Shown: one piece after another, positions 1,755-22,113 of the stretch
Numbering within the stretch: position 1 is the stretch's first letter
Layout: every line of letters begins with the position of its first letter
Made by a program: the position numbers and the translations under genes
The notes under the pieces: generated by a model
Told to the model about the DNA's origin: nothing
Database searches by the model: none
Seen by the model: only the letters and a program-made list of their open reading frames with translations
Assembly: GCA_965215015.1 (NCBI GenBank)
Contig: OZ244042.1
Span: 4,480,001 to 4,544,000, forward strand
Source: Candidatus Poribacteria bacterium
GTDB taxonomy: Bacteria > Poribacteria > WGA-4E > PCPOR2b
Direction: 5' to 3'
Length of the DNA: 64,000 bases

Positions 1755-1884
1755 TTGAATTCTGAAAACTAAATTTGCTTCGTTTTAACTTTCACAAATG
1801 AAGATTATCAAACTTAATTCTATGAAGCATAAAAAAATCAACTTCTTTCGTTATCCAAGTGGAAAACAAGGAATTCGGATGAAC

Positions 1885-2108
1885 TGTCGCGGCCCGATTC
1901 ATCGGGCCGCGTGAGTCGTATAGATACCAACAACGCTGCGCGACAGGTCCAGGCTCAATTCACCAAACACGGTCGCACAACATACCGGGCATTTGATGAG
2001 TCACCGAGGATACCATGACTATTGCGCCATAATCCTGGCTCAACCAACCATAACCATTGCGCGACCTTTTTTGGTGTTGGGTTTGAACATTCAACTCCGT
2101 AAGTCCTA
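1885..2108. repeat. Intergenic palindrome (gcggcccgattcatcgggccgc) plus terminus of the TAGGACTTACG repeat family
   Basis: Hairpin near 1889-1910; 2079-2108 (gggtttgaacattcaactccgtaagtccta) matches 28189-28218 and the reverse complement of 31075-31104. Confidence 0.65.
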
Positions 2109-2135
2109 TTTTATTGGAACACACACAAAAAACAG

Positions 2136-3890
2136 GTGGTGATTAATATAATTGGCGAATTACTACAATATATCTTTAGTCTTGAAGACCCATTTGGTAG
2201 AAACATTGTACGGTTTATTTTCTTTGTATTTGGGCTTGGCGTTATAAACTACGCGGTTCATATACTGCGAATAGAATATGATTATTTCTGCCTCAAACGT
2301 GTTCAAAGCTATATCAAAGGCAACCATGGGCTTGATGATATTTCTCCCGGTTTACTTGACAAATTACGCGCACAGAAATTCATAGTACAGGAATACTTAG
2401 TTATAAGCAGCATTTACAAGCGAATTCGTGATTTAGTCCAGATTAAGCAGAATCACGGGAAAATTGATCATGACGTACTCGGAGACATTCATGCAGGCGC
2501 AGCCAGCAGAAAGGCTGGTTTATCGAACTATATCCTCGGCACTCTCATCATCCTCGGTTTAATTGGAACATTAGGCGGATTAATTACCGCAATTAGTGAA
2601 GTGCAGCCCCTTCTGAGAGACATTCAAGACCTTGACCAGCTCCCCGAAATTCTTGATGCCCTTCGACTTACATTGAGCGGCATGAGCACTGCATTTGTAA
2701 CAACGTTAGCCGGATTAGTAACATCACTCGGTTTAGGGTTATGTGGTTGGCTCTTTAACCTTTCAAACTCTGCTTTTCTCACTAAATTTGAAACAGTTGT
2801 ATCAACGGAAATACTTCCCCACTTCACACAAGCCCCAGAATCCGCCCTTGAATCCTCTATGGATCGACTTCAAGTGAGTGTTGACGAATTTAAATTAGCA
2901 ACGGAAGACAACGTTCGGAGGATGGAACAGGCAATTCAACAATTAACGGAAAAGTCATGGGATGCTTATCTTGAACAACAATATGTCATTACGCAAGAGT
3001 TGGGTAAAATTCCGGCAGAACTTCGGGGAAGTTTAGGAGGGATAAATGAATATCAAGTCCTGATTCAATCCACAGTGGAGTCTTCTGAGGAAACAGCAAA
3101 ACAGTTCATGAATAAAATCTCAGAATTTCAAACCGCTGTGGATACGATGATGAACGATTTTAAGCGGATGACAAAGGAGGCTATATCTCAGGTTTCAAGA
3201 GATCAGGCTACACTGCTTGAGGGTGTAGAAAATGTCGTATCGGAGCTCAGAGAAGAAAGCGCAGGATTAGAAGAGACAATTCGTGAGACTCAGCGTGAGA
3301 CTCAGAGTTCACAAGCAAGATTCGCTGACGAACTTGCTAATAACCTTGCTGACACTCTTATCAAGGGTCTTGATACACAGCTTCAATCAGTGCTTCAACC
3401 CATCACAGATAGTCAACAAGATATGATGGAAGGACTACGTGAAGTTGAGTCGAGGATTAGTTCTGGACTTGAGAATCAGAATCAAGTTTTTGAAAGAATC
3501 AGAACCGAGTTGATAACCAATCGGCAGGAAATTGGTAATAGACTATCGCAATTGATAGGTGAGCTTCAAATTAGACCTACCCTTGAGGCACAGAATCAAG
3601 TGTTTGAGCGAATTGAAGGACATCTACAAGGGCAACATGAATTGGTTGATGAACAAAGGCAAATAATGCAAACATTAGATACTAGTGTGAGGCAACTTGA
3701 ACGAACTTTTCCAAGCGCAGCATCAGATGAACAGCAACGCACAGAGGAAATGTTGAAGCAACTCTCGGCAAATTTTGAAACATTAAACGAAAAGATAGGG
3801 ACATTGAACCACACCATGAGTCAACCTGGTTTGTATCGTTGGGGGGCAGCATGTCTCCGCTGGATCCGAGGTGATCGCAAGTGGCGATAA
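2136..3890 (+). CDS. MotA/TolQ/ExbB proton-channel family protein with long helical C-terminal tail (ZorA-like)
   Basis: TM motifs LIILGLIGTLGGLITAI and GMSTAFVTTLAGLVTSL followed by ~350 aa of Q/E-rich coiled-coil-like sequence; directly upstream of a MotB-like gene. Confidence 0.8.
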   Translation: MVINIIGELLQYIFSLEDPFGRNIVRFIFFVFGLGVINYAVHILRIEYDYFCLKRVQSYIKGNHGLDDISPGLLDKLRAQKFIVQEYLVISSIYKRIRDLVQIKQNHGKIDHDVLGDIHAGAASRKAGLSNYILGTLIILGLIGTLGGLITAISEVQPLLRDIQDLDQLPEILDALRLTLSGMSTAFVTTLAGLVTSLGLGLCGWLFNLSNSAFLTKFETVVSTEILPHFTQAPESALESSMDRLQVSVDEFKLATEDNVRRMEQAIQQLTEKSWDAYLEQQYVITQELGKIPAELRGSLGGINEYQVLIQSTVESSEETAKQFMNKISEFQTAVDTMMNDFKRMTKEAISQVSRDQATLLEGVENVVSELREESAGLEETIRETQRETQSSQARFADELANNLADTLIKGLDTQLQSVLQPITDSQQDMMEGLREVESRISSGLENQNQVFERIRTELITNRQEIGNRLSQLIGELQIRPTLEAQNQVFERIEGHLQGQHELVDEQRQIMQTLDTSVRQLERTFPSAASDEQQRTEEMLKQLSANFETLNEKIGTLNHTMSQPGLYRWGAACLRWIRGDRKWR

Positions 3891-3912
3891 ACACCCGTAG
3901 GAGAATGCTTCA

Positions 3913-4539
3913 ATGAACCTTCGTATGCGTCAGAACTCTGTCTTGAATATCTGGGCCGCTTTTACCGATGTATTCATAGCGATGCTGCTCATCTTTCTGT
4001 TTTTTATTTTTATTCAATTTATCTCTAACAGCAAACTATTCCTGAAAATCCGAATGGAGAAAAAGCAAGATACGATACAGGAAGCGTTTGAAAAAAGGTT
4101 TGCCAGTGAGATAAGGCAAGGTATTATCTCTATTGAGCGGGACGGCAACCTGCAACGTTTTATGTTTAGCAACCGAATCCTGTTTAGAACCGCTGAGGCA
4201 GAACTGCAGCCACTTGGACGGTCCACCTTGATCCCTGTTGGTAGATTATTACAAAAACACAAAACAGGGTCTTATCAAAGTATACAGATTGAAGGGCATA
4301 CAGACGATGTTCCTATTGTAACACCACAATTCCCATCTAACTGGGAGCTATCGGCAGCACGGGCGATTGCGGTTTTACGCCTTTTTGTTGATGACATCGG
4401 TATTAACCCGAAAATGTTGACTGCAACAGGCTACGGAAAATTCCACCCTGTCGCACCGAATACCACAGTTCACGGACGAGCGAAAAACCGCAGAATTGAG
4501 ATTGTTTTAGTCTATTCCGAAACAGAGAGAATTCAATGA
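3913..4539 (+). CDS. MotB/OmpA family protein (ZorB-like)
   Basis: N-terminal WAAFTD plus TM helix carrying the conserved Asp; OmpA-like peptidoglycan-binding domain IEGHTDD, NWELSAARA, NRRIEI. Confidence 0.9.
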   Translation: MNLRMRQNSVLNIWAAFTDVFIAMLLIFLFFIFIQFISNSKLFLKIRMEKKQDTIQEAFEKRFASEIRQGIISIERDGNLQRFMFSNRILFRTAEAELQPLGRSTLIPVGRLLQKHKTGSYQSIQIEGHTDDVPIVTPQFPSNWELSAARAIAVLRLFVDDIGINPKMLTATGYGKFHPVAPNTTVHGRAKNRRIEIVLVYSETERIQ

Positions 4540-5906
4540 ACATCTGTCCCTACAAAAACGAAAGCACGACATGCGGTTTACTTTCACCAGAAGTAGAGGG
4601 AACAATCGCTTATTGTAACCAGTGTTCTCAGCTTGCTTTTCGGTGTGCTGCAGGGCATTGGAACCGTGCCTTTGCGCGTTATTGCACGCAATGTAGTATA
4701 CGACTTGAGAAGCCCACGGTATGGGACATGGCATCGGGTAATCCGCATCGCACAGCAACATCTTCCACAAACTCAGTGGATGTTAATCTTCCGTTAAATT
4801 CAGGCGTGGTGGATATACCGCCCATAGAATCGGTTGACAACTTGCCGGGACTACTCGCAATTGATGGATTGATTGTTGTGCCAAATCCGCGTCAAAGAAA
4901 GCTTGATGCCTACACGATTGAAAATATACAAAACAGCATCCGTCTAAGGAATCAATGGGAGATTGAATTTGATACACCGTTGACATACGGTTCTACCCCA
5001 ATCTATCATGGACTCCATCTATATTTGGTTGTGTCGGGTGGGATCCAAAAAACGGATATTATTAATGGAGAAACAGAACTTATTAATAATATCAATGGTG
5101 TTGATGCCGATCGGATTGAGCCGATGCCTGGGTGTGCACCACTGAAAAGTGACGTGAACGGTAAGCCGACACTGATCGCTGGCGTGAAAAATGGTATGCT
5201 GCGGTTTGACTTCGCTAACAATATCGGTGAATATATCCAACATCCCTTCTTTGACGAGGAAAAAGGACCTTTGTCGCCTACGCTGTGCGGGAGTCATATT
5301 GTTTTTACATTTAAACGGGGATGCGTATTATCGTTCAACATTGACACATATCCATTGAATAGAAAAAGTCTGTTCCTTGAAAATAGGTACTTTTCGGCAC
5401 CTGTTTCGCTCAACGGTTTGGTCTATTTTGAGGTGTTGAGCGATAGAGGTATGCGTAGCCTCGCACGTTTTGATCCGAATTCAGGACAATTGTCAAACGC
5501 AGCGGATCTGGATCTTCTGCCGAGACGCGCTTTTGAAAGTCGCCCATCCCTGTTCATACATCCGCCGCTTACTAGTGGAAAACGGGTGTTTTTATCCGAT
5601 AGATCAGGAAAGAGCGTCTATACTTACGATAGCGATAGAGGTGCTTCTTTACCGATTAGGCGGTTGCTAGGAAACGATAGTCAGTATCGATTTGTACCGC
5701 ACCAATCCATTGTGGCGAACAATCAGATTTATTCTGCACATTCTTACGGATTAACTATTCTGCCGCTTGGACAAAATAATGCCAATCAACATCATTCGTT
5801 AGCGATGGGACAACCGACCAATCCGACACCCGTTGCACGCCCTATCCGGTATGGAGATAAAATATTCATTTTGTGCAAAGATCGACTCTTATGTCGGGAC
5901 TATTAG
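4536..5906 (+). CDS. Double zinc-ribbon plus PQQ/BamB-like beta-propeller protein
   Basis: Cys pairs YCNQC and YCTQC; WDMASGNPHRTA resembles the PQQ-propeller lead-in; blade-like motifs GSTPIY, FSAPVSLNGLVYF, PIRYGDKIF. Confidence 0.6.
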   Translation: MNICPYKNESTTCGLLSPEVEGTIAYCNQCSQLAFRCAAGHWNRAFARYCTQCSIRLEKPTVWDMASGNPHRTATSSTNSVDVNLPLNSGVVDIPPIESVDNLPGLLAIDGLIVVPNPRQRKLDAYTIENIQNSIRLRNQWEIEFDTPLTYGSTPIYHGLHLYLVVSGGIQKTDIINGETELINNINGVDADRIEPMPGCAPLKSDVNGKPTLIAGVKNGMLRFDFANNIGEYIQHPFFDEEKGPLSPTLCGSHIVFTFKRGCVLSFNIDTYPLNRKSLFLENRYFSAPVSLNGLVYFEVLSDRGMRSLARFDPNSGQLSNAADLDLLPRRAFESRPSLFIHPPLTSGKRVFLSDRSGKSVYTYDSDRGASLPIRRLLGNDSQYRFVPHQSIVANNQIYSAHSYGLTILPLGQNNANQHHSLAMGQPTNPTPVARPIRYGDKIFILCKDRLLCRDY

Positions 5907-5920
5907 GAGGTATATTGCGT

Positions 5921-7804
5921 ATGCTCCATTTAATAAATGTTCTAAGATTCACACTCACTATTAGCATATTTCTCATTTTTATCTTATTTCCGCCTATGGC
6001 AGCTGCCAAACATATCATCATAGTTTATGATGTATCTGGTAGTATGGTGAGCCTCAGGGGTGGCGGGCGCGTAATCACATACATGGAATCCGAAGATATC
6101 CGTCGTGTCAATGAATACCTGACAGCCCTCTTATTCACAAATACTTCACAGTCTTTGCGCGATAGGGTCAACGACTCATATATCAAGGAATGTGATGCCG
6201 CGTTTGTCGGTAAACCCCTATACCAAAGTGGCGATGTCCTCACCTACGCCGAGTATGCAGAAGAGCGAACCCCAAAAATTAATAGAGCACAAGTTAGCAA
6301 AAACGAGTTGCAAGGGCAGCTGCCGAATCGGGACTCTCTCAATGGACAGGTCTCTTACTTACTGCGCGCAGAAGTTGAGGTGTATGATGTGTTATACAAT
6401 AATGCAGACGACGAAACGTATTGGGTTTTCGTAACAGATGGTGACATTGATAACAGTGGTAAAAGCGACCCAGATGTATCTAGGATTTTAAGACGACTTG
6501 CTGAAATTGAAGAGGAGTTTTTTGATCCAATGATTTATGGTGTCTTTGTCAATAACCATGTAAAAATTGAAGTCAGGCGACTCCAAAAACGGGACGACAT
6601 CGATTCAATTTTCATTGCTACATCAACGACATCGAAAGAGCCGGTGCAGGAAATTCAACTATCACTAGATGAAGAAGGAAAGTTTTTCAGCGAAACGCTA
6701 ACTATCGACACGGAGAGCTCTGAAAAAACGAAATTTAATCTCAGTAACGTCAATGTGGAGATTGTTGACCGAGATAATAGACCGCTTCAAATAACGAATG
6801 AAGACAACACAACAGGCATTCTCAGTATCGATCCTGTTGAGCTTCATGGGAATCCACCCCCGCATGAATTTCGTATCCTACTTCCCGGCAATCGTGAGAT
6901 CGCTGCACCGGACAACAGGATGAATCTTGAAGTTACCTATAGTTTCAACGGAGAAGATAAAGTTTTTACTGCACCCCAGATGAACTATACTGTGGAAATT
7001 AAAATCATCTATGTTGCCAGACTGAACGATCCCGATCGTCCTGCAAAGCAGTTAGAACTCCTGTTTTCTGACGACAAATATAGTGAATCTTTGACGATTC
7101 AGACTGAAAGTCCAAAGATAGATGCATTTCAGATTGACCAAATCCAATGTCATATTCAATACAGGGATAATCGTAAACTTAGTGATGCGGTTGTGCCAAA
7201 AAACATAAAACGTATAGATGAATCGTTTAGCGTGGAAGTGCCGAAGCAGGATCGTTTGGATTGGTATGGTAACAAGGTTGTCCTTGAAATTGACTATAAA
7301 TATAAAGAGGAAACGTTATCTAAAACAATTGAGATACCCTATAAATTGGTAGGCGGTGGCACTGGTTTCCCAATCTGGCTGCTCTGGGTGCTCCTTGTTC
7401 CAGTTTTAGGTGTAATAGTCTTTTTTCTGATTCGTAAGATAATAGGATGGATAAAAGTTGAACATCGAATTAGGTTGACCCAAGTCAACGAGGCAGGCAC
7501 GCCGTTGCATGAAACAGCGCATTTTACACTCGAAAACAAAATGACTCTTGAATTTGGGCCTCGGGGTCCCAATGAATTACGTTTTGATGTCGGAAGCGAA
7601 GCTTTTCTACATTGCGTCAAGAAAAATCTAATCCTATTTGCGGATGGTGATGATGAGGAAGGACAGATATTGGATTTGCCCGAAACATTAACATTAAGTC
7701 GTGGCGAAGATGAGGACGATGTCTGTGTCAAGTGTGAGATAACGGATGGTGCTTATGACGAACCGGAGGAAGATGATGATGATGCCAACCCACTTGATAT
7801 GTAA
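5921..7804 (+). CDS. Membrane-anchored von Willebrand factor A (vWA) domain protein
   Basis: AGGAGG before ATG 5921; signal peptide ending AAA-K; MIDAS IIIVYDVSGSM and VFVTDG; TM helix WLLWVLLVPVLGVIVFFLI; acidic C-terminal tail. Confidence 0.8.
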   Translation: MLHLINVLRFTLTISIFLIFILFPPMAAAKHIIIVYDVSGSMVSLRGGGRVITYMESEDIRRVNEYLTALLFTNTSQSLRDRVNDSYIKECDAAFVGKPLYQSGDVLTYAEYAEERTPKINRAQVSKNELQGQLPNRDSLNGQVSYLLRAEVEVYDVLYNNADDETYWVFVTDGDIDNSGKSDPDVSRILRRLAEIEEEFFDPMIYGVFVNNHVKIEVRRLQKRDDIDSIFIATSTTSKEPVQEIQLSLDEEGKFFSETLTIDTESSEKTKFNLSNVNVEIVDRDNRPLQITNEDNTTGILSIDPVELHGNPPPHEFRILLPGNREIAAPDNRMNLEVTYSFNGEDKVFTAPQMNYTVEIKIIYVARLNDPDRPAKQLELLFSDDKYSESLTIQTESPKIDAFQIDQIQCHIQYRDNRKLSDAVVPKNIKRIDESFSVEVPKQDRLDWYGNKVVLEIDYKYKEETLSKTIEIPYKLVGGGTGFPIWLLWVLLVPVLGVIVFFLIRKIIGWIKVEHRIRLTQVNEAGTPLHETAHFTLENKMTLEFGPRGPNELRFDVGSEAFLHCVKKNLILFADGDDEEGQILDLPETLTLSRGEDEDDVCVKCEITDGAYDEPEEDDDDANPLDM

Positions 7805-7917
7805 AGCGCATGAAACAAAAACACACGAAGGATATTTGTTGTAAAGTATTTCTGTTCATGGTATTTTATGGACATACAATTCAGAAATTAATTAACACAT
7901 AGATAATAGGAGATTAA

Positions 7918-8316
7918 ATGGAAGGCATTGCTGATTTTTTTGGAGATCCGTTAGTATGGCCAGCAGTTGTCTACTTTATTGCTTACACTCTTGTATGGAT
8001 AATTGCATGGGCACTCGGTCAGTTGTCCAAGCAGCGAGTAAGTGTTGAACGTGCAGCAGCATTCGCCTGGGGAATTGCGCTTTTTATGCACCTACTCGGC
8101 GGAATTGTACTTATAATATGGCTGTGGGACAGAGCAAATAATCGATTCGCTGAATGGATGCATACAACCCTTTATCTATTATTCTATATAGTCATTATGA
8201 TTGTCGATGTTTGCTTGTTGTTTTCAGTACTAACCAAAAATACGAAAAAAAGAGGGACTGCCGCGCCGATGCCAAAACCAACACGTAAACCTCGTAATCC
8301 AAAAAAGAGGTCATAG
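7918..8316 (+). CDS. Small three-TM membrane protein with basic C-terminal tail
   Basis: AGGAG RBS; three hydrophobic segments; K/R/P-rich C-terminus. Confidence 0.75.
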   Translation: MEGIADFFGDPLVWPAVVYFIAYTLVWIIAWALGQLSKQRVSVERAAAFAWGIALFMHLLGGIVLIIWLWDRANNRFAEWMHTTLYLLFYIVIMIVDVCLLFSVLTKNTKKRGTAAPMPKPTRKPRNPKKRS

Positions 8317-8362
8317 ACAATGATGTCGGCGAAATCTCTAACTAAATACGAAGGAGAACACG

Positions 8363-11300
8363 GTGATTACACCTACGATATTTGTTGGACTTGGAACAAC
8401 CGGAACCGATATTTTAAAAAATTTACGTGAACTTATGGCTGAAGAGTATGGGCACGCGGGGTTGCCACTTTTCCGCTATATTGCCATTGAGACAAATGGG
8501 GACGTGAATGTGCAAAATACAAACCAAATGGAGGATTATGAACGAATCAACCTTATAAGGGCAACAATTCCGAACGTTAAACCGATTGACCTTAGGTTAA
8601 CGCCTGGAGAACCACGATACAACCCACATTTGGCGGATTGGCTGGATCCTGAACTCTTGAAAATTGAAGCGGGTGGTTTTATGGCTGGGGCTTCAAATAT
8701 ACGCATGGCAGGTAGATTGTGTTTATGGGAAAACTGGGCAAACGCCCGATCTACATTCGTCAACGCAATCGGTGCTATTACGGCACCCGCTACGAAACGG
8801 AAAACAATCAATATTCTAACAGAGCGTAATAAAATTGCAGGACACCCACTCGATGATGCCGGCTTCATTAAGGTCTATGTGCTTGGATCCCTCTGTGGAG
8901 GTTCTTGTAGTGGGATGCTTATTGATGTCGGATATTTTTTTAGACATCTCCTCAGTGCATACGGCGATAAATCAAGAATTGATGGTATTTTCACAATGTT
9001 CGACGAAACCCACGCTGCGAATCCTGACGACATGTTTAACATACGTTCAGCCAATTGTCATGCAAGCCTTTCGGAGTTAAATTACTATCATGATCAGGAG
9101 ACAACTTACGATATAACTTTTCCAGATGGGCGGAAGATTGAGAATATGCGAAAAAAGCCGTTTGATTATACGCTGTTTGTATCACCCAGTGGAGAAACTG
9201 CGGGCAACCAATTCTTAACAGGAGCCGGCGACTTTGATGAAGACGGTTTGAACTTGATGGTAGCACTGAATCTTTTTGCTGAATCTGCTGCAGACACAGC
9301 CGATATAAAAAATGCAATTCGCACAAATTATATATCTCATGCAAATTTTGGGACACGAAACCCCGTGAGACAGGGTGAAATCCCCACTATGATACGCTAT
9401 ATGGCCAGTTTCGGATTAACAGCAGTATGGTATCCCAAATATCGCATCGCAAGTGCTGCTGCCTGCTCAATCAGCGATAAATTATGTGAAAATTGGTTGG
9501 GATCACACATTCCCCAAGCCACAACTGTAAGAGATGCGGAAACGGAATGGAATCAGATTCTAAAAGAGAATATCGATACATTAACTAGTCCAGAAGGACA
9601 GCTCTCAATTAGAAATCGGATTAATACGCATCTTGAAGATGCAAGGCAACAATGGCTCAATACAGAAATCTCAGCCAATCAACTAAGTCAGAATATGACG
9701 AATTTTCCAGACGGTGATTCATTCAGGAAGAAACTTGAGCAGGGTGGAGAGTATGTTGAATTGATGAAAATGCAAGTGTCTGAATGCAAAAAGGCGTTTC
9801 TCGATGCGATTGAACAAAGTTTGAGGAACCAATTAGGAAGTATTGATTTTGAGGGAACGCGAGGCCTGGAAGATGTGAAGATATTCTTTGAAACGCTCGA
9901 TAAAGGTATAGAAAGCTCTATACAAAAGTGCCCTGATCGGATGCCGCCTTTAAAGTTGGATAAATTGGATTTCTCCGCGATGGAGAGAGCAGATAATAAT
10001 CTTTGGTTGAGGCTTATTTTTCTCCGGGATGATGCTGTTCAAGCACATCGAAAAAACATGGTCGAACAATATTGCAATTTGATTACCGCACCTAGGAAAG
10101 GTTTTTATGAGTCGGTTCGGAATCATTTCATCAGACCGATATTGCAGGAAATTCGTTCCGAACTCGGTTTCGGCGTCATCCCGACAGATGAAGGTGAACC
10201 TAACCGGCGTCGAACGATTAAACAGCGATTGGATCAGATAGAAGGGAATCTAAGCCAGTGCATTCAGAAATTCAAAACCAAATATGATAAAGCTATTAAT
10301 CCACCAATATCTGAATGTGTGAAAATTGTTGCTAATAACCCAGAAAATCGAATTGATACGGATGCAATTACACTGAGCCACCAGATCTCACAATCGGATG
10401 AGGGTATTGACTTGCTTGGTGGGGAACCGATGGCTGCTTTTTTAGAAAAAGAACAGAAAGACATTATCGCTCAGATGACTGAAACTTACCGACAACTATC
10501 ATTAGATCGGATTCAAGTTGATGATGTCGTTACAAAGGCTCAGGAACTTTTGGGCTCGGGGAGTTTCGATATCCAGAATCTCGCCAGCCGCTCAAATCCA
10601 TACCAAATGTTTACCCCTACTTACGAACCGTTTGCTGTCGACGATTCACCAAATATCATCTTTGGCAACTCAGGGGAGGCTTTAACTGACTTGAATAACA
10701 GTTTGAGTGGGCAAGGATTCTCGTTTCAAGTCAGTCCCTCTTCTGTAGAGCATCTCCTTTTTTTCTATCAGGAGGAAGCAGGTTTCGCCTTAGATGACCT
10801 TGAGTCTCATGACACGCTTGCCGCTAAATACAGCCAGTCTCCAGGAGAGTATGGACATTCAACCCATAAAGATGCTGACTTTTATAACCTTGAGTTTTAC
10901 TACAAAAAGCAAGTATTGCAATACTGGTGTCTTGCTTTAGGAAGGATTGTCCCTGAAATCTGGAAGCATATCAATAGAGACGCATTTTCTGGCGTTTTTT
11001 ATCAAACTCAGACCGAAGATATTTATTATGAATATAACGTTGACGGGTTATCTGAACGACTCGGCTTACATAACGATCCAGGGGGAATTAGAAATCTATC
11101 CCAGAAGCGAAACGAAACTGAGTATAACGGATTTATGAGATTAATCCGATCGTGTTTCGCAGATCTGGATCGCGAACAGATTGAGCAGCGCATTAATTCA
11201 TTGCTGAGGGAGATTGAAGACCCCAAGGAACATAGGGATATAAGTAAATTCTTTCGTCAGTTTTTAGATGATGTCTACCCTGAAAATGCTTCGATAGATT

Positions 11301-11743: not shown

Positions 11744-11749
11744 GCGGTT

Positions 11750-14440: not shown

Positions 14441-14458
14441 ACTGAGAATGGAACACCA

Positions 14459-15718
14459 ATGCCAAAAAGCGTATGTATCATCAACCTTTCAGCACCTGAA
14501 ATTCAGATAACCGTTTTAGTTGACAATCAGCGACAAGACATCAATCTTCGACTGCCATGGGAGGTAGGGTTTCGGCAAGAAAATGATAACACACTAGTTC
14601 CCTGTTTCGGTGAGGCATTCAAACGTCTCAACTCAAACCATCCCGCAGAAGTGCGGTTTCCGGATTTAGATGTGAAATTCAAGGAAATCAGGGATGAAAA
14701 AACCTTGCAATGCTTGTTTCACGCTTTTTTTGAGGAGATTTTTCACCAGCAGTTACCCGAACATGGCTATCCGATAGATGCGATGTCTGTATATGCCATC
14801 ACACCGTATCACTGGACACCAACACATCGCCAACAACTCAGAAAGGCACTCAAGCGTGTAAAAAGTAGGGAGCAAGTTTCATTTCTCAAGCCATCAAAAG
14901 TAACACTTCGGGGCCTGTTCAGCCAAATTCTATGCCTCTCGGCATATTATCAGAAGGCATGGATGGATATACTCACAGCCCCAAACAACTGCCATCTATT
15001 TCTAATAGATTTCGCACGGGACGATCTTGTTGTCTATCAAATGATTTGTAGTCAGTTGGAAGACAATGTTAAGGTTGAGCTGACCGATATGCTGCGATTT
15101 ACCGAATACTCCTCGGAAATACAAAAAACGATTGCAGGTGTACAAAAGGCATTGCAAAAGGTTAAAGGTGAACAGCACGTTGTAGTCGGTTTTTCTGGCA
15201 GAATTGACGATGATGATAATGTTGCGTTAACTATTATTGAATCGTTGCGCGCACGGTGCAGGGCAACTTTTCTCGAGCCACAGCCAATCGCAACACTTTT
15301 GGGCGGCGCAGAATTGGTTCGGCAATTTGAGAAAAAAAATCTTGAAAGACCACTTCACTTTGTCTATCATTTCTGCTACGGTGTGCGGTTACCTGATGGA
15401 AAATGGGTTGAACTTGTCCCCAAAACATGGACACCCCCTTATCACCGCAAAAAGGCCTTTCGCGCCACAGAATCGCTTGAAAAATTCGATGTCCAGCTTT
15501 TCTGCGGTTTATCCTTGACAAATAACAGCGATGTCCATCATGTCGCGACGCTTGAGATTGACTATACGGAGAATAACAATTTTTCATCGCGCAATGCGAT
15601 GGAATTTATACTTTCAATTACCATGAACGCCTCTACACACGGCACATTTACTGTACATTTTCCGAATCCGCAGGAACCGAGATCTGTTGAATTCACAGTG
15701 CCAACTTTGATGGACTAA
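14459..15718 (+). CDS. Degenerate Hsp70/actin-fold paralog lacking ATP-binding motifs
   Basis: By-eye alignment to the upstream Hsp70: AITPYHWTPTHRQQLRKALKR, LIDFARDDL, ATLLGGA, YGVRLPDGKWVELVPK; glycine-rich loops absent. Confidence 0.6.
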   Translation: MPKSVCIINLSAPEIQITVLVDNQRQDINLRLPWEVGFRQENDNTLVPCFGEAFKRLNSNHPAEVRFPDLDVKFKEIRDEKTLQCLFHAFFEEIFHQQLPEHGYPIDAMSVYAITPYHWTPTHRQQLRKALKRVKSREQVSFLKPSKVTLRGLFSQILCLSAYYQKAWMDILTAPNNCHLFLIDFARDDLVVYQMICSQLEDNVKVELTDMLRFTEYSSEIQKTIAGVQKALQKVKGEQHVVVGFSGRIDDDDNVALTIIESLRARCRATFLEPQPIATLLGGAELVRQFEKKNLERPLHFVYHFCYGVRLPDGKWVELVPKTWTPPYHRKKAFRATESLEKFDVQLFCGLSLTNNSDVHHVATLEIDYTENNNFSSRNAMEFILSITMNASTHGTFTVHFPNPQEPRSVEFTVPTLMD

Positions 15719-15755
15719 AACCTTAATCACTTCAGATTATACAAGGGAAAACGCT

Positions 15756-16922
15756 ATGTCCTATTTTAGATTTATGTTATTACTCCTCGTATTAGTACTG
15801 TTTGGATTCGTTTCAATTGGGTATTCACAAGGTAACACAGAAAACCCATACGCTGATCCCATTTTTTGGAAATTTTTGTTATTCGTTGTGGTTGCAGGCG
15901 CGATTTCTACTGTGGTTATATTGTTCGTGTTTCAAATGGTTAAGTGGTGGAAATCAATGTGGCTAAGAACACAAGCATTTCTGACAGAAATGGATCGAGT
16001 TAAACAGGAATTGACGGTAAGATTGGACTCCATTCAAAAAATTAGTATAGATTCCGCCAACAAATTGGAAAAAATGACACATGAACAAACATCAATTCAA
16101 AATGAACAGAAAAATATCCTGAATGATATTGGGCAACTAAAAGACATTACTGTATCTAATACGGAAATTGAGGGGGGCGAGGAGCATACATCAATTGATT
16201 ATCGGAGGGCAGCGGCGAGTGAGGTCCAATCAGCGCAAGAGCAAGTATCGGAATTGGTTGAGGCTTACAAAGATGGAGAGCCAATTGGGTTCATTAACAT
16301 TAAAGATCCAACGCCGGGTCAAAAGGCGTTGATGATTTTAAATTGGATAGCGCACGCTATAGAGGACTGGGTAAATGAATTAGAACAGTCCCGAACAGCG
16401 AACCCAGACCTCATTCAAACGCTGAAATCTGCGAATCAGGCTATCAAAGAGAAACTAAAAAAGGCCCGTGGACAGAAACCACCTTCGCCAGAACCACTCG
16501 ATCTGGATACTGATGTCAGCACAGATGCAGCATATAACGAACTAAAAAATGAGTGTCTTGTGTATGTGTCGCGTTATGAAGCGATGCTTCGTAAGCATCA
16601 ACTGGAATGCAAAATAGCCGAAACAGAATATAACCAGTTCATTCCGAAATTTATCAAAGATAGGTTATTCAATGGTGTGGCGAGATTTATCAATTTTGAA
16701 CAATTGCCTGAACAAGTCGATAAATTTTTACAAATTGTGGATTATGAGGTGGTCCCGATTGAGATAGGAGAAACGAAAGCCGACGCGCGTTTGCATGACA
16801 TTCAAGCCTCACGGCGAATCGGTGTTGACCCTGGAACCATTATTGAGGTCGTTTTACCGGGATTGCGACGGAAAGCAGACGGTGAAATCGTGCAAAAACC
16901 TGTGGTGATTCGCGGAGAGTGA
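15756..16922 (+). CDS. Membrane-anchored GrpE-like protein
   Basis: Signal peptide plus TM; coiled coil; C-terminal GrpE-type head DARLHD, PGTIIEVVLPGL, IVQKPVV. Confidence 0.65.
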   Translation: MSYFRFMLLLLVLVLFGFVSIGYSQGNTENPYADPIFWKFLLFVVVAGAISTVVILFVFQMVKWWKSMWLRTQAFLTEMDRVKQELTVRLDSIQKISIDSANKLEKMTHEQTSIQNEQKNILNDIGQLKDITVSNTEIEGGEEHTSIDYRRAAASEVQSAQEQVSELVEAYKDGEPIGFINIKDPTPGQKALMILNWIAHAIEDWVNELEQSRTANPDLIQTLKSANQAIKEKLKKARGQKPPSPEPLDLDTDVSTDAAYNELKNECLVYVSRYEAMLRKHQLECKIAETEYNQFIPKFIKDRLFNGVARFINFEQLPEQVDKFLQIVDYEVVPIEIGETKADARLHDIQASRRIGVDPGTIIEVVLPGLRRKADGEIVQKPVVIRGE

Positions 16923-18165
16923 CTTGATGAAAGAAAAGGATACCCGACCCGCTAACATTCAAAGCAAAGAAACTGTCCGCCCCCAAAATCAAATTGGAAG
17001 CATATTGAACATATCTGTCATAACAGAATATGAAAATGGAGATGTTTATCTAATCTTGGACAATAGAGATGAAAAAGCAATATCAATTACCATTTCCTAT
17101 GCGGAATCTGATAAGTCAATCGCCAAACCATTGGAACACTTTGAGCTGTCCGGTGATAGTCAACGAAAAGTGTCATTACCAAAGGGATTTGAGAAATGGG
17201 AAGAGCTCAAATTTGATGTAAGGGAGGAAAATCCAATAAGGGAGAAAAATAGACAGATTCCTAATACTTCTCTAAAGAAACTCTCGGATGAAGCTAAACG
17301 GCAGACAAAGGGTGATCCGCCCCAACCTAAAACCGAACCTTCAATTTCTAAATCAGAACAAACGGACAACCCAATAAATATAATAGGCAAAGATCTAAAA
17401 CCTGACATAGAAACGATCAATCCGCCTGAGCGACGTTCAACTGATTATCAGCGCAAAGCAGAAACAACTGTTCAAGAGACACGGGAACAAATAACAGAAT
17501 TGGAGTGTACCTACAAGGACGGAGGGCCAATTGATTTCATTAACATTCAAGATCCAACGCCGGGTCAAAAGGCGTTGATGATTTTAAATTGGATAGCGCG
17601 CGCTATAGAGGACTGGGTAAATGAATTAGAACAGTCCCGAACAGCGAACCCAGACCTCATTCAAACGCTGGAATTTGCGAATCAGGATATCAAAGATAAA
17701 CTAAAAGAGATCCGTGGACCGAAATCACCTTCGCCAGAATCACTCGATCCGGATACTGATGTCAGCACAGATGCAGCATATAACGAATTCAAAAATGAGT
17801 GTCTTGTGTATGTGTCGCGTTATGAAGGGATGCTTAGCAATTATCAACTGGAGCGCAAAATAACCGAAATAGAATATAACCAGTTCATTCCGAAATTTAT
17901 CAAAGATAGGTTATTCAATGGTGTGGCGAGATTTATCAATTTTGAACAATTGCCTGAACAAGTCGATAAATTTTTACAAATTGTGGATTGTGAGGTGGTC
18001 CCGATTGAGATAGGAGAAACGAAAGCCGATGCGCGTTTGCATGACATTCAAGCCTCACAGCGAATCGGTGTTGATCCTGGAACCATTGTTGAGGTCGTTT
18101 TACCGGGATTGCGACGGAAAGCAGACGGTGAAATTGTGCAAAAACCTGTGGTGATTCGCGGAGAA
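16266..18165 (+). repeat. Near-identical ~650 bp direct repeat (16266-16919 and 17512-18165) encoding the shared GrpE-like C-terminal regions
   Basis: Long identical DNA runs in both copies, e.g. gatccaacgccgggtcaaaaggcgttgatg and gtggtgattcgcggaga. Confidence 0.9.
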
Positions 18166-18168
18166 TAG
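16924..18168 (+). CDS. Soluble GrpE-like protein, paralog of the upstream gene with an unrelated N-terminus
   Basis: C-terminal ~215 aa nearly identical to 15756..16922; no TM; start may be ATG 16927. Confidence 0.65.
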   Translation: MMKEKDTRPANIQSKETVRPQNQIGSILNISVITEYENGDVYLILDNRDEKAISITISYAESDKSIAKPLEHFELSGDSQRKVSLPKGFEKWEELKFDVREENPIREKNRQIPNTSLKKLSDEAKRQTKGDPPQPKTEPSISKSEQTDNPINIIGKDLKPDIETINPPERRSTDYQRKAETTVQETREQITELECTYKDGGPIDFINIQDPTPGQKALMILNWIARAIEDWVNELEQSRTANPDLIQTLEFANQDIKDKLKEIRGPKSPSPESLDPDTDVSTDAAYNEFKNECLVYVSRYEGMLSNYQLERKITEIEYNQFIPKFIKDRLFNGVARFINFEQLPEQVDKFLQIVDCEVVPIEIGETKADARLHDIQASQRIGVDPGTIVEVVLPGLRRKADGEIVQKPVVIRGE

Positions 18169-18174
18169 CACACA

Positions 18175-19149
18175 ATGTCTATCAGACTCCTTATCGTTTT
18201 GCTCTTCAACGGGCTTCTTATCAATGCGGAGGCTTTTGCACAAGATGCTCTAAGCTTTGTCCAGATTGTAGATGGAATGATTCAGCGGCGTCCGCCCAAT
18301 ACTCGGCAGACAATTGGAAGGCGATATGTGTGGAATTTTCGCGGAAGACCCTACACCATCCTAATGACAATTGGCTTGGAGCAGTATAATTCTTACTCCG
18401 GCAGAGAACGCTACGATATTCCCAAATTAGTGGAAGAAGGGAGAACAACAATCGGCAATCTGACGCGTGAGTTCCGACGTACCTTCCAACGAAATCAGAG
18501 CTGGACCAAACAGGACCGCGTTGATTTCGTTTTAAGCTTTGTCCAATCCCTGCCGTACACGCTTGATAACGTGACTACAGGCTATGATGAATTTCGACGA
18601 TACGCAATTGAAACTTTGATTGAAGGAGGCGGAGACTGCGAAGATACGACGATCCTTGTGGCGGCTATCCTGCGCGGGTTAGGAGAAAAGACCGCACTGA
18701 TTTTCACCCCGGGACACATCGCACTCGGTGTCAGCGGAGACTACACAGGTACATCGTTTACCTTCAACGGCACAAACTACTACTACTGCGAAACAACCGG
18801 AACCGGTTGGACTGTTGGCAGGCTGCCTGCATCTGTCGGCAATGTGGCTGCGATTGTCCCGTTAAGCCCCTCTACAATACCCACACCTGTGCAGCCTAGG
18901 CCGACACCGCAGGTGCCAGAGCTTACACCTACACCCGAACCGCCACCTATACAACCAGAGCCGCAACCCGATAACAGAGAATCTTCAGAAACAAATAGTG
19001 CAGCCGGTATGGTGATTGTTACGCTCTTTATTCTCATCGGTTTGGGGATACTGATCGCGTTTCTGGTCTATCGTTTCATCATTTCAGATAACGATGATGA
19101 CATAGAAGATGATGACACACACGAATCAACAAATCCGTTAGATTGGTAA
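18175..19149 (+). CDS. Exported, membrane-anchored transglutaminase-like (Cys protease fold) protein
   Basis: Signal peptide AFA-Q; FVQSLPY, GGGDCED, PGHIALGV, YYYCETT; Pro-rich linker; C-terminal TM and acidic tail. Confidence 0.8.
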   Translation: MSIRLLIVLLFNGLLINAEAFAQDALSFVQIVDGMIQRRPPNTRQTIGRRYVWNFRGRPYTILMTIGLEQYNSYSGRERYDIPKLVEEGRTTIGNLTREFRRTFQRNQSWTKQDRVDFVLSFVQSLPYTLDNVTTGYDEFRRYAIETLIEGGGDCEDTTILVAAILRGLGEKTALIFTPGHIALGVSGDYTGTSFTFNGTNYYYCETTGTGWTVGRLPASVGNVAAIVPLSPSTIPTPVQPRPTPQVPELTPTPEPPPIQPEPQPDNRESSETNSAAGMVIVTLFILIGLGILIAFLVYRFIISDNDDDIEDDDTHESTNPLDW

Positions 19150-21728
19150 CCGATTCGCCTATGATTAACCACCTCAAAGAAATCTATCGCGAATTATATC
19201 TACCCCCGGCAGATTCCGCAAACCCACCGTTCAGGGTTACACAGATTAATGCCCCTTACCTTTATACCGATGCGAACCTCTATGTAGATACGTTCGATAG
19301 TCCGAACCAATCTGTAAAGTTTGAGGTATCAAATGTTGGGAGTGGAAGATTAAATGTAGAAGGGATTCGTATTCCCCGTGGGGCCAAAAGGTGGATAAGG
19401 ACAGCTGAGGGCCCACAATCTGCTACACTCACATCAAATTCGGAACCGAAAGAAATTGAGCTGAACATTCTGCTAAGAGAACTACCGAACCCTTCATCCG
19501 TGAATGTTGTAAAACTGACCGTCCTCTCCAATTCAGAACGGAAAACGTTTAGCGAGATATTGTTAGGTGTGCGTCCCCCAGAAAATCAGTCTGTGAATTT
19601 GACACTTCCCGAATATCTCAACTTTGGAGAAATAACTGTCTGTAAGGTTTTGATTGCTAATCGTCGTGAAGATGCGGCGGCACCCCCAGTCGAATTTCTA
19701 CTCATCGAAGATTTTACACTTAATCCACCAACACGTCTTGAAATAACACAAAACGATGAATCCACTTTTGACGCGTATATTTTCACTTCAAAAGGTGAAC
19801 TACATTACAAATTAGATTTACGGACACCGGGTGTCGTAATGCCACAACAGGAACAATCTGGAATTAATTTCCAACAGACTGTTCCTGTGTCAATTGTTAG
19901 TCAAATATTTTCTGAGCATGCGATAACGTCCGATTCTGACTGGTTAATTGCACCGTCTCAAATCTTTACTACTGGATCTGCTATAATCGATTTACCTGTT
20001 TCTGTAAACGTTGAAAAACTGGAACCGGGGCGAAATTGCGGCGAACTTGTTGTAGCCGATAAGAAAACACAGGTATGGGTATGGTCCAAAGTTGTTAATG
20101 AAACAGCACTGACGTTAGAGAAGGAACAACCGAATATCCGCCACGTTGAACAATTCTCAGACCAAGAAGAGCCGCTGCCAATTGAAGTTGTATCAGCAAA
20201 TGAACCTTATCAATCTCTGATGATTTTTGAAGACATAGATTTTCAATTCCCACTGGCAGGCGATCAACGGACAGGTTATCTGATGGGCGACTTTAATCAA
20301 TGGGCACCGCGCACGTTGTTCCTTGAGAAAAGAGATGATAGAGGTAGCGTCACGTTAAGTGTTTCTGAAGGAATATACTGTTATCATGCTGAAATTGACG
20401 GTGAGATGCGGCTTGACCCTGCGCGGTTATACGAAATAGTCTGCTGTCAACACGGGTTAGCGTCCAAATTACAGATCGACAGAGCTGAACAAAAGGTGAC
20501 ACTGGAAAACAGGTCGGAACAGAAGTTAAAGCTAAAACTTCAATCTGCTACCAAATGGATGCGAATTAAACCTGAGACAATTGCTCTTCCCGCCAGCAAA
20601 AGAACTGAGATAACTGCGGTATTCCACCCGGAACATCTGCTGCCGGGGCTCAATTTAGGCTGGCTCCAGATGGAAACCGTAAGAGAACCGAAAAGGTCGC
20701 TTCATACGCCAATCTATGTTATCGGTATGACAAATGGGGCTGTTCCTGTTCTCCGAACTAAAGAGTTGGATTTTCCACAAATGGAACAGGGGAAAGTAGA
20801 AGGCATTCCGCTTACGATCGATATACTCGGTGAAGGAGAACTAAAGGGGGAAATTCAGCCGTCTACAGTCTTGCGTTTTGTGGAGGGCGATCTACATGTC
20901 CGAAACACAACAGCATTTAAACCGATGGGGGTTGCCCCACTTGTCCAGGTGTTAACTGAAAGACCCTCTAACGCTTATCGTAAACAGATCTCTGCGTCTC
21001 TGCTTACGGACTGCTATCTTATGAACCACAGGATGCATCGTTTCAAAGCCAAATATGATATGATTCACCTTGTCTCAGACCCGCCCGCTCTGTGCTTTCC
21101 TAAAGTTTATCTGTTTGATGACCCACAGCACGTCGATATAACGATAAAACGCAGTGATGGTAAAGGTAATGTTGTGTGTAGCGTTGAAATACCCGATGCT
21201 TTAACAGAGGGTGGATTCTTGAAGGTTAAGAACAGTGCTGCGAAAAATAATACTGGACATTATGAATTTGTTATTAATCCACAGGCTCGCACAAATGCTG
21301 GACGAGTTTCAGATACTTTACGCTTTATGGACACAAATTCCGGAATGGTACTGCCAATTCAATTCGTGGCAGATATTGTCGGAGGTGAAGCGAAGATTGA
21401 TGTTAAGACTCAGGGACAACGTTTAAATCTATTATCTGGTGGCATACCGTTAGTGATTACCAACATCAGTAAAGCTGAATTGCGGATATTTAAGTTGCTA
21501 TTTAAATATCGGCGGTTTTCTCTCTCTCCATATCTGACCTCGCAGCAGCGCACCCTCCTTCCCGGGGAATCTATTGAGAGGTTCATTAAGATGGAAGCAA
21601 CAGTCGGCTTGTTAGGTAGAACAATAGTCAAGGATACGCTTATTATTAGACTCAATGATCCACAATTTCCCAAAGGTGTCCTTAAAAAGGAGATTGTGGC
21701 TGAAATCCAAGGCCGTTTCCTGAATTGA
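19143..21728 (+). CDS. Multi-Ig-like (BACON/ASH-like) protein with internal CBM48/AMPK-beta-like glycogen-binding domain
   Basis: FEVSNVGSGRL, YLNFGEI, SDSDWL; GYLMGDFNQW, GIYCYHAEIDG, DP matches the CBM48-like pattern; no signal peptide; start may be ATG 19161. Confidence 0.55.
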   Translation: MVTDSPMINHLKEIYRELYLPPADSANPPFRVTQINAPYLYTDANLYVDTFDSPNQSVKFEVSNVGSGRLNVEGIRIPRGAKRWIRTAEGPQSATLTSNSEPKEIELNILLRELPNPSSVNVVKLTVLSNSERKTFSEILLGVRPPENQSVNLTLPEYLNFGEITVCKVLIANRREDAAAPPVEFLLIEDFTLNPPTRLEITQNDESTFDAYIFTSKGELHYKLDLRTPGVVMPQQEQSGINFQQTVPVSIVSQIFSEHAITSDSDWLIAPSQIFTTGSAIIDLPVSVNVEKLEPGRNCGELVVADKKTQVWVWSKVVNETALTLEKEQPNIRHVEQFSDQEEPLPIEVVSANEPYQSLMIFEDIDFQFPLAGDQRTGYLMGDFNQWAPRTLFLEKRDDRGSVTLSVSEGIYCYHAEIDGEMRLDPARLYEIVCCQHGLASKLQIDRAEQKVTLENRSEQKLKLKLQSATKWMRIKPETIALPASKRTEITAVFHPEHLLPGLNLGWLQMETVREPKRSLHTPIYVIGMTNGAVPVLRTKELDFPQMEQGKVEGIPLTIDILGEGELKGEIQPSTVLRFVEGDLHVRNTTAFKPMGVAPLVQVLTERPSNAYRKQISASLLTDCYLMNHRMHRFKAKYDMIHLVSDPPALCFPKVYLFDDPQHVDITIKRSDGKGNVVCSVEIPDALTEGGFLKVKNSAAKNNTGHYEFVINPQARTNAGRVSDTLRFMDTNSGMVLPIQFVADIVGGEAKIDVKTQGQRLNLLSGGIPLVITNISKAELRIFKLLFKYRRFSLSPYLTSQQRTLLPGESIERFIKMEATVGLLGRTIVKDTLIIRLNDPQFPKGVLKKEIVAEIQGRFLN

Positions 21729-22113
21729 TACCTTCAAGATATCTTCTGTAAGGGGTGTCCTCAGATTACGGTTGCACAGGTGCTATTGCAGCACACGAGC
21801 CATACCCGCGCATGTGTGACGGCCGCACACAAGGTTCTGTTGCGATTGAGATTGAAAAATACACTTCATTGATATCGCAGATATCGCATCCGAGGCAATA
21901 GAAATTAAAAGCTGCACCTCAGTTGGGGTCTCCTGCTAAAATGCGGGGATATGTAAATGTTTATCAAAAGCTGCTATACACCTTTCGCCTCTCTGAGGCT
22001 CGGTGCAAAATTTGTCGTGATGCTATCAACATTCCGCCCTCTGGGGCTATGACAACGCATATCTGGTAGTGTTCACTTCATGAGGAAAACATAGCTACAT
22101 AAATAGGTGCTAA

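Follow-up and report, generated by a model that had tools for sequence, protein, structure and literature searches.

Background

The locus described here has its closest known counterparts in two sets of prokaryotic operons and in one defence system. Operons of the FtsZl1/vWA/OmpA kind were described in 2010, in an analysis in which FtsZl1 (Tubulin_2) proteins stood out as some of the most diverged within the tubulin superfamily (Makarova and Koonin, PMC2875224); tubulin/vWA and HSP70/GrpE conflict themes followed in 2020 with the DO-GTPase/GAP1-N2 systems (Kaur et al. 2020, PMC7159879), and the motor mechanism worked out for Zorya (PMC11946911) is the source of the analogy that we use below. 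The locus itself is an island of twelve genes at positions 2136-21728 of a 64,000-nucleotide stretch of DNA (hereafter "the window") from a Candidatus Poribacteria metagenome-assembled genome (MAG), the host genome being a single contig of 5.94 Mb. It encodes a ZorAB-like motor pair together with a tubulin-like protein, a vWA-like protein and a predicted Hsp70. Poribacteria are a sponge-associated phylum. As for FtsZl1/Tubulin_2 proteins in general, we know of no function that has so far been established for them.

An accessory island conserved as one unit

The twelve genes (g1 to g12) are one conserved, accessory and mobile unit. A preliminary description of this DNA, made from the sequence without database searches, had listed twelve open reading frames (ORFs), all on the + strand, and we recovered every one of them at exactly the same coordinates, with intergenic gaps of -34 to +113 nt. 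Among 12 poribacterial loci that were fetched for comparison, all twelve genes occur in the same order in nine, so that homologues of the motor, the tubulin-like gene and the Hsp70 set do co-occur and the array stands as a conserved unit, while g1-g11 are found in 10 of the 12; g12 was seen in nine of these loci and is cut by the end of the fetched stretch in most. One of the 12, from genome G110, has g1-g10 plus duplications, with g11 in a second stretch. Further poribacterial MAG loci (L043, L046 and L048) carry g1-g11 or g1-g12, and the gene order is kept across Candidatus Poribacteria at 40-85% protein identity.

The distribution of the island is patchy. Island-type tubulin genes are present in 20 of the 151 genomes of the phylum (any match at E<=1e-10 in 24 of 151), and in three of the 19 other genomes of the same genus. 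G085, G091 and G059 have the island at the same site as here, and the site is empty in 14 of the 19, where the hydratase gene is followed by the AMP-binding gene after 25-130 bp, two genomes of this survey being assigned to neither the filled nor the empty class. In other genera the flanks differ, and the island was found in at least four genomic contexts. Its GC content is below that of the flanks in six out of six genomes; in the window it averages 0.429, as compared with 0.547 for the left flank and 0.512 for the right, and 1-kb windows inside the island range from 0.40 to 0.46, with 18001-19000 (0.50) as the sole exception, against 0.52-0.57 in the adjacent flanks. The higher AT content noticed earlier is therefore real.

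We treat the genes as one unit because their order and close packing are kept from genus to genus at 40-85% identity, because they come and go together at the site in this genus, and because the whole block has moved to other contexts. The same three observations largely refute the alternative that there is no single system here and that a Zorya-like pair, a tubulin/vWA module and a chaperone module are no more than neighbours. That alternative could draw on the occurrence of tubulin, vWA and ZorAB without Hsp70 in cyanobacteria, and of the core plus Hsp70 without visible ZorAB in two of the more distant loci (L134 and L042, see below), but we consider it very improbable.

Two of the compared poribacterial loci are aberrant. 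In a rearranged one (L024/L045, G110:C1:5680144-5700143) the tubulin gene is present twice, each copy being interrupted by in-frame stops, g4 is split, and an additional copy of the C-terminal domain of g9 and g10 is fused to the Hsp70 gene in an ORF of 1164 amino acids (aa). In a reduced one (L022/L047, G070:C1:3938670-3958669) all that is present is a ZorB-like gene (36% identity), g11 and reduced-length versions of the tubulin gene and of g12.

A ZorAB-like motor pair and a tubulin-like protein

The first two genes encode a motor pair, as the preliminary description had supposed, and the library models agree on both subunits. The ZorA-like subunit g1 (2136..3890, + strand) is predicted to have transmembrane (TM) segments at residues 28-46, 128-153 and 186-204, followed by a helix-rich cytoplasmic tail of about 380 aa in which a scan for tandem repeats found none of note. 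Its best PADLOC model is ZorA3 (1.2e-15), with ZorA1 and ZorA2 weaker, and the Pfam model MotA_ExbB was not matched at E<=0.01. Among the 11 orthologues listed, the one in L024 has 395 aa and the rest 554-735 aa. The ZorB/MotB-like subunit g2 (3913..4539, + strand) combines a single TM helix containing Asp19, a residue invariant in 12 of 12 orthologues, with a periplasmic OmpA-type peptidoglycan-binding domain; it matches PADLOC ZorB3 (6.7e-29) and Pfam OmpA (3.8e-16), and its NCBIfam matches, of the MotD/MotB type, are every one under cut-off. To our knowledge ZorAB is the sole 5:2 motor that signals into the cytoplasm through a long tail, and we know motors of the Zorya kind from defence only.

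The largest protein of the island, g6 (8363..11743, + strand; 1126 aa), is predicted to be an FtsZl1/Tubulin_2 protein, with an N-terminal GTPase-like domain, a helical middle and C-terminal region, a linker and a terminal peptide. The earlier assignment to the tubulin superfamily was borne out by Pfam Tubulin_2, which matches residues 6-373 of 1126 at 4e-43. The residues of the T1 loop (G9, G11, T13, G14) and of the T4 loop (G179, G180, S183) are invariant, distant paralogues included. At the C-terminus an acidic/proline-rich linker of about 130 aa is followed, in most orthologues, by a peptide of the form F-x-V-A-D-V-D-L-K...K-K-E, an arrangement resembling that of FtsZ, which also ends in a linker and a peptide. 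Directly upstream lies g5 (7918..8316, + strand), which by hydropathy is a small protein with three TM segments and a basic tail, and whose position is kept in 11 of the 12 loci, in L134 and, weakly, in the Bacteroidetes locus L051.

The same genome has a second Tubulin_2 paralogue, a 959-aa ORF with 40% identity over the N-domain (G000:C1:2291264-2292502; L025:6872-9751). There are no other island genes near it, and similar paralogues in G109 and G080 form a separate clade.

Motor-linked tubulins in other phyla

The linkage of motor and tubulin recurs in three phyla. When 185,579 species genomes were scanned with the tubulin N-domain, 79 loci were obtained, 71 of them non-poribacterial, and in 40 of these 71 a ZorA-like and a ZorB-like gene both adjoin the tubulin gene (three more have one of the two); nearly all are cyanobacterial. 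The cyanobacterial cassette consists, in this order, of a 380-aa vWA-like/TM protein, Tubulin_2, ZorA-like and ZorB-like, with no Hsp70. In Scytonema its motor genes match PADLOC ZorA1 (1e-15) and ZorB1 (3e-7), and g1 is 25% identical to the Scytonema ZorA-like protein over the TM hairpin only. The third phylum is represented by plasmid pRadio2 of Deinococcus radiophilus (L152, NZ_CP086382.1 88093-105181), which has a cassette of this kind (vWA-like, Tubulin_2, ZorA-like and ZorB-like) and in which ZorA-like and OmpA genes lie downstream of a tubulin-like gene, an IS630 transposase gene being situated between the ZorA-like and the tubulin-like one; the former, annotated as a "methyl-accepting chemotaxis protein", matches the g1 model at 24.5 bits, and the OmpA gene matches that of g2 at 51.6 bits. 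This plasmid also encodes, at the position of g5, a 107-aa protein that looks multi-TM by reading of its sequence.

A tree of the tubulins was built with a quick method, SH-aLRT support values and a midpoint root. In it the island tubulins (support 97) group with those of L134, an unclassified MAG, a Bacteroidetes MAG and the poribacterial paralogues (support 100), and those linked to a motor in cyanobacteria make up a clade of their own (support 98); clades without a motor lie between the two. Since the tubulin clades lie far apart, the ZorA subtypes differ and g1 and its Scytonema counterpart are only 25% identical, the picture fits repeated recruitment of the motor to the tubulin, with the tree being a quick one that has no true root.

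Other relatives share more of the core, or have other neighbours. Marine metagenome contig L134 has g3-g4-g5-g6-g7-g8 in the same order, much diverged, followed by what reads by eye as a g9-like membrane protein. In another poribacterial genus (G140, locus L042) the order is zinc-ribbon protein, DVSGS protein, small protein, Tubulin_2, a 346-aa protein and a zinc-ribbon-Hsp70-like protein. The nearest non-poribacterial tubulin with readable neighbours is in a Bacteroidetes MAG (L051:9995-16639), where a tubulin 37% identical to g6 is preceded by a g5-like ORF and followed by TIR_2 and then a ParA/MinD-TPR-TIR gene. Conjugative plasmid pNPUN01 of N. punctiforme (L150, NC_010631.1 131595-150674) has, in the order annotated, genes for an S8 peptidase, a CHAT protein, a caspase-family protein, a PstS-like protein, a vWA protein and a tubulin-like protein.

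The Hsp70 set

Downstream of the tubulin-like gene lie the four genes of the Hsp70 set, g7 to g10. The preliminary description spoke of a dedicated Hsp70/GrpE module. The Hsp70 part of this stood up. g7 (11750..14440, + strand), which is predicted to be built of a zinc ribbon, about three Ig-like beta-sandwiches, an Hsp70 nucleotide-binding domain (NBD) and the beta part of a substrate-binding domain (SBD-beta), with no lid, matches Pfam HSP70 at 1.3e-34, above the 20.6-bit cut-off, and its profile matches DnaK structures in the PDB at 1.7e-31 over the NBD and part of SBD-beta. The ATPase motifs DFGTTNS, KRW, DEASAA and DFGGGTID are invariant, and g7 is thus a predicted Hsp70 with intact ATPase motifs. 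The Ig-like labels derive from Pfam matches that are all sub-threshold, so that the "Ig scaffold" of the earlier account is not confirmed.

The next protein, g8 (14459..15718, + strand), belongs to a very small family, of which a search of 1.84 billion proteins at E<=1e-3 gave no more than 27 representatives, and has no Pfam match, either by its own sequence or by its orthologues. With a narrow alignment (A1) nothing was found against g7 or the PDB. With a broadened one (A6), hhalign aligned residues 80-192 to g7 (13%, E 0.0021, 108 columns) in the "TVPAYF...DxGGGT" region of Hsp70, and the four best PDB matches were all Hsp70s, at E 0.18-0.23 and colinear with the g7 alignment. Taking these signals, each weak alone, together, we regard g8 as probably a degenerate Hsp70-like pseudo-ATPase (NBD and SBD-beta) that has lost the phosphate-binding glycines.

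The last two genes of the set are paralogues. g9 (15756..16922, + strand) is predicted to have a signal peptide, a short periplasmic stretch, a TM segment, a cytoplasmic coiled coil and a 235-aa C-terminal domain (C-domain), and g10 (16924..18168, + strand) is a soluble protein in which a small N-terminal domain and a linker precede the same C-domain. At the DNA level 300 nt are 90% identical between them (window 16239-16538 versus 17485-17784). The two C-domains are 85% identical to each other in this genome and 58-70% identical to their nearest orthologues; over the genomes compared, identity within a genome is 56-85%, often above the orthologue median of 52-58%. Identity that is higher within genomes than between orthologues indicates concerted evolution through gene conversion. 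One of the 12 loci (L024:3508-7002) has the C-domain and Hsp70 joined in a single gene, which ties the domain to Hsp70.

The GrpE part, for which the g9/g10 C-domain was the candidate, failed every sequence test. A whole-genome search with PF01025 at E<=10 found the canonical grpE only, none of 13 C-domain sequences matched Pfam GrpE, and hhalign of the C-domain alignment (A4) against that of the genome's own GrpE (A3) gave 0.7%; trimming to the C-terminal part gave, at E 0.1, a register that is plausible when seen by eye. The A4 profile had no PDB match at E<=10. Against 5.8 billion proteins the C-domain had 284 matches, and the 120 listed were all at least 49% identical, with no GrpE Pfam tag among them. 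An Hsp70 with a pseudo-Hsp70 and paired cofactors would be a rare private Hsp70 machine inside an accessory system.

Periplasmic proteins and the possibility of surface adhesion

Two further proteins are predicted to expose domains to the periplasm. g4 (5873..7804, + strand) appears to be a type I membrane protein, with a signal peptide, a periplasmic vWA-like domain, a beta-rich region, a TM segment at 501-519, a cytoplasmic domain and an acidic tail; its true start may lie further in, several orthologues beginning about 16 codons later. The AxA signal-peptidase-type site is followed by K-H-I..Y-D-V-S-G-S-M and later by F-V-T-D-x-D-I-D, both motifs being invariant in 11 of 11 orthologues. The vWA assignment of the preliminary description fared differently by different tests: none of the 11 orthologues matches any Pfam VWA model, whereas the DxSxS and TDGD motifs are invariant and hhalign against the genome's own VWA_2 domains gave a probability of 53% and E 1.4e-4 over only 26 columns in the region of the second motif. 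A putative vWA-like periplasmic domain, with an intact metal-ion-dependent adhesion site (MIDAS) motif, is supported by motifs and profile but not by Pfam.

g11 (18175..19149, + strand) has a signal peptide, a periplasmic cysteine protease domain of LapG/BTLCP-like type, a proline-rich linker, a TM segment at 280-298 and an acidic tail. It had been described as transglutaminase-like, and Pfam Transglut_core does match weakly in 8 of 12 orthologues (best E 0.0098); the assignment can now be refined, as the g11 profile matches PDB entry 4fgo, the LapG of L. pneumophila (PMC4359373), at E 6.5e-5 over residues 116-162. G-G-G-D-C155-E-D, H181 and C-E-T-T-G are invariant, and the prediction of a LapG/BTLCP-like periplasmic protease of the transglutaminase fold is supported. 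By hydropathy g4, g11, g9 and g5 are membrane proteins, parts of which lie in the membrane or the periplasm, and g6, g7, g8, g10, g3 and g12 are predicted to be cytoplasmic, in agreement with the earlier proposal of periplasmic vWA and transglutaminase-like domains, a peptidoglycan-anchored motor and a cytoplasmic scaffold.

These two proteins bring up one alternative function, the control of surface adhesion or of surface proteins in a Lap-like or Agl-Glt-like manner, in which the protease and the vWA domain would handle an adhesin or host ligand, the motor would transduce force to the envelope, in the way proposed for TolQR-vWA force transducers, and the polymer would serve as track or signal, something that could be relevant to life inside a sponge. 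Apart from the LapG match of g11 (E 6.5e-5) and the predicted periplasmic location of both domains, it has in its favour that the genome is a Candidatus Poribacteria MAG, that inner-membrane-tethered vWA proteins driven by 5:2 motors have been proposed and that vWA has been linked to gliding (PMC12204202). On the other hand, no large adhesin, LapD-like receptor or cyclic di-GMP domain was found by Pfam among the 12 proteins, g4 has a cleavable signal peptide instead of a TonB/TolA-like N-terminal anchor, the same core is found in free-living cyanobacteria and Deinococcus, and an accessory distribution is ill-suited to a core symbiosis trait. We therefore consider control of adhesion quite unlikely.

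Remaining genes and immediate setting

Two proteins remain. g3 (4536..5906, + strand) is a cytoplasmic zinc-ribbon protein with a CxxC...CxxC motif and, in hydropathy, neither signal peptide nor TM segment; its 12 orthologues give weak Pfam matches to Zn_Ribbon_1 (four), DZR (three) and Beta-prop_ACSF4 (two), and its top 13 PDB matches are all BamB/YfgL, but at E of about 1, so that a PQQ/BamB-like beta-propeller is probable. g12 (19143..21728, + strand) is a large protein that is predicted to be cytoplasmic and to consist of beta-sandwiches, one CBM48/AMPK-beta-like module lying at about residues 366-442. Its Pfam matches (BACON_2, Cep192_D3, AMPK1_CBM and HYDIN Ig) are sub-threshold, and in the PDB it matches the N-domain of neopullulanase at 0.0069 and AMPK-beta carbohydrate-binding modules at 0.13-1.2. 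For g3, g4, g8, g9 and g10 Pfam at E<=5 gave nothing useful. A Walker A motif is absent from all 12 proteins, and no kinase or GTPase model was matched.

The array is inserted between unrelated metabolic genes, as had been stated and as the domain matches of the flanks agree. Upstream are genes for an enolase-superfamily protein (MR_MLE_C) and an enoyl-CoA hydratase, and downstream those for an AMP-binding enzyme, a Nuo51-type flavoprotein and an AP_endonuc_2 protein (sugar-phosphate-isomerase-like). Scans of the boundaries gave no promoter-like site 5' of g1 and one weak terminator-like hairpin at 21813-21831, neither of which we use as evidence.

Two side observations concern the left flank. 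The enolase-superfamily gene (window 200-940) is present as two to three tandem paralogous copies in several genomes of the genus, e.g. G051, G034, G015 and G085. The spacer between the hydratase gene and g1 contains, at window 1875-2110, a dispersed repeat whose copies, some 230 bp or 110 bp long and 79-96% identical, lie at no fewer than 20 further sites in the genome, with weaker copies in genomes of the same genus; with a 16-nt hairpin inside it, at 1883-1916, it looks like a miniature inverted-repeat transposable element (MITE) or a repetitive extragenic palindrome (REP).

Possible function

We tentatively read the island as an accessory conflict system, directed against phages or other invaders, that senses the envelope: a trans-envelope machine of the FtsZl1/vWA/OmpA kind with a Zorya-type motor as its input or power unit. 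We regard this as the likeliest of the readings considered, if short of probable, because of the patchy accessory spread, the conservation of the genes as a unit that has moved between contexts, the Zorya-like motor and the recurrence of its linkage to tubulin, the fusion that ties the C-domain to Hsp70, the relatives near TIR, CHAT or caspase genes, the defence matches in some of the flanks and the published tubulin/HSP70 precedent. The flank matches (PADLOC, pooled island flanks of G111, G080, G027 and G113; L135-L142) include HEC-01A at 4e-163, HEC-01B at 8e-55, an AriA-like protein at 5e-31 and PD-DExK at 1e-43, and two of the ORFs in these flanks carry Uma2.

In such a system an envelope disturbance (phage attack, wall damage or contact) would let the peptidoglycan-anchored 5:2 motor of g1 and g2 turn, as in Zorya. 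The g1 tail would recruit no nuclease but would trigger or position the assembly of the tubulin-like polymer under the membrane, and the Hsp70 set may fix the threshold of this assembly and reset it, with g7 as the active ATPase, g8 as its pseudo-enzyme partner and the C-domains of g9 and g10 as membrane-tethered and soluble cofactors, respectively. On the periplasmic side the vWA domain of g4 could bind a ligand, and the tethered LapG-like protease g11 could cleave a target. The outcome would be local containment or remodelling of the envelope rather than an attack on nucleic acids. Since no nuclease or toxin model is matched, the island fits the idea of "physical containment" put forward with the DO-GTPase systems (PMC7159879).

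Several observations weigh against a role in conflict. Over five contexts no more than 2-3 of the 53 flank ORFs match any one defence model, as raw counts that have no baseline. In the window itself the array is bordered by metabolic genes and not by a defence island. No integrase was found near the island and no tRNA within window 1-30000, and the two island boundaries share no repeat, direct or inverted, that reaches 10 nt. No relative was found on viral contigs or in phage records, so that a variable location is the one mobile-element signature of the island. L134 and L042 have no ZorAB in their visible sequence (which for L134 extends 800 bp upstream), and because these cores show no ZorAB the motor may be dispensable for the core function. 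The library models give no nuclease or toxin among the 12 proteins, in keeping with the earlier statement that no such effector is recognisable. Finally, Makarova and Koonin, in the main text of their analysis, proposed for operons of this kind not defence but membrane remodelling (PMC2875224).

That published prediction is also the starting point of the alternative that the island is an accessory membrane-remodelling machine, or one that forms vesicles or compartments, in which the motor would provide energy and an anchor in the wall, the tubulin would shape the inner membrane and the Hsp70 set would assemble the polymer and recycle it, with no invader involved. Every one of the 12 proteins is of a membrane, periplasmic or scaffold-like type, with no toxin among them, the FtsZ-like linker and terminal peptide of g6 suggest a membrane tether, and the cassette is widespread in filamentous cyanobacteria. 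A remodelling machine is less easily reconciled with the presence of the island in only 20 of 151 genomes and the empty site in 14 of 19 congeners, with its varying genomic location, with relatives that adjoin TIR, CHAT or caspase genes and with a motor of a kind that we know from defence only, and we hold it to be unlikely.

A broader version of the conflict reading would be that Zorya-type rotary motors are general partners of a tubulin-family polymer, their tail acting directly on FtsZl1, and that in Poribacteria this pair has been supplemented with an Hsp70 machine and a LapG-like protease to give a nuclease-free device for immunity or envelope repair that works by physical containment. 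Such a generalization is rather doubtful at present. The island and the cyanobacterial and Deinococcus cassettes connect the function of FtsZl1 with signalling by the ZorA tail in a testable idea, namely that the tail acts on a tubulin-like polymer, and the four-gene cyanobacterial version occurs in genetically tractable organisms. If the motor-tubulin reading were true, motor, tubulin and chaperone would form a prokaryotic machine for which no counterpart has been described, and if the island were defensive, it would be an immune system with no recognisable enzymatic killer.

Comparison with known systems

The island resembles Zorya I-III in its motor, for which ZorA3 and ZorB3 are the best models: the ZorA-like protein has the long tail in the cytoplasm, and the ZorB-like one has both the aspartate in its TM helix and the domain that binds peptidoglycan. 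It is not Zorya I-III, because none of the other ten proteins matches ZorC, D, E, F or G; there is no nuclease, and ten other conserved genes, among them the tubulin-like gene and the Hsp70 set, replace the soluble effectors. The PADLOC check suggested in the preliminary description gave ZorA/ZorB-like models only, the rest of the array fitting no PADLOC family (g3-g10 at E<=0.01, g11-g12 at E<=0.1).

Two of the predicted periplasmic proteins invite comparisons of their own. g11 matches L. pneumophila LapG in its core, has the conserved Cys and His and is likewise predicted to be periplasmic; in contrast to LapG it is tethered by a C-terminal TM segment of its own, and the island lacks a LapD-like receptor and a LapA-like adhesin. 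The arrangement of a 5:2-type motor encoded beside a membrane-tethered periplasmic vWA protein recalls the TolQR-like motors with vWA "force transducers" (PMC12204202). The island differs from these by a ZorAB-like motor with a cytoplasmic tail, by the C-terminal TM segment that g4 has after its cleavable signal peptide, and by the lack of a TPR gene.

With the DO-GTPase/GAP1-N2 systems the island has in common a tubulin with a C-terminal helical part, a membrane protein with an extracytoplasmic vWA domain (a putative one here), an HSP70 accompanied by a second HSP70-like protein, zinc ribbons, beta-sandwich (FNIII/Ig-like) repeats, which are sub-threshold here, and a membrane-proximal setting (PMC7159879). 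It cannot be counted among them because it has no P-loop GTPase, the defining DO-GTPase being absent (no Walker A motif, no GTPase model). Furthermore, in that study the tubulin and HSP70 themes are non-overlapping and are found mainly in Actinobacteria and Firmicutes, whereas in the island both share an operon with a ZorAB-like motor.

The FtsZl1/vWA/OmpA operons come with an FtsZl1 in which a tubulin-like domain at the N-terminus is followed by a long helical region, a membrane-associated vWA protein with MIDAS, an OmpA-family gene and many lineage-specific membrane proteins (PMC2875224), all of which have their like in the island, the vWA protein as a putative one. The differences are that the OmpA gene of the island is half of a ZorAB-like motor and that an Hsp70 module is present; moreover, neither the diverged P-loop GTPase nor the Ser/Thr kinases that are frequent, though not universal, in those operons are found in it. 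The main text of that paper has no MotA, MotB, DnaK or Hsp70, and its supplementary neighbourhood tables might list such neighbours. Our literature searches brought up no paper in which a ZorAB-like motor is combined with a tubulin-like protein and Hsp70, with the supplements possibly holding more. The description of the system as new can thus hold at most for the combination of all three parts, and not for the FtsZl1, vWA and OmpA core published in 2010 or for the tubulin/vWA and HSP70/GrpE themes published in 2020. Judged by its predicted proteins, the island belongs to the FtsZl1/vWA/OmpA kind, and in theme it stands close to the conflict systems with tubulin or HSP70 that Kaur et al. described in 2020.

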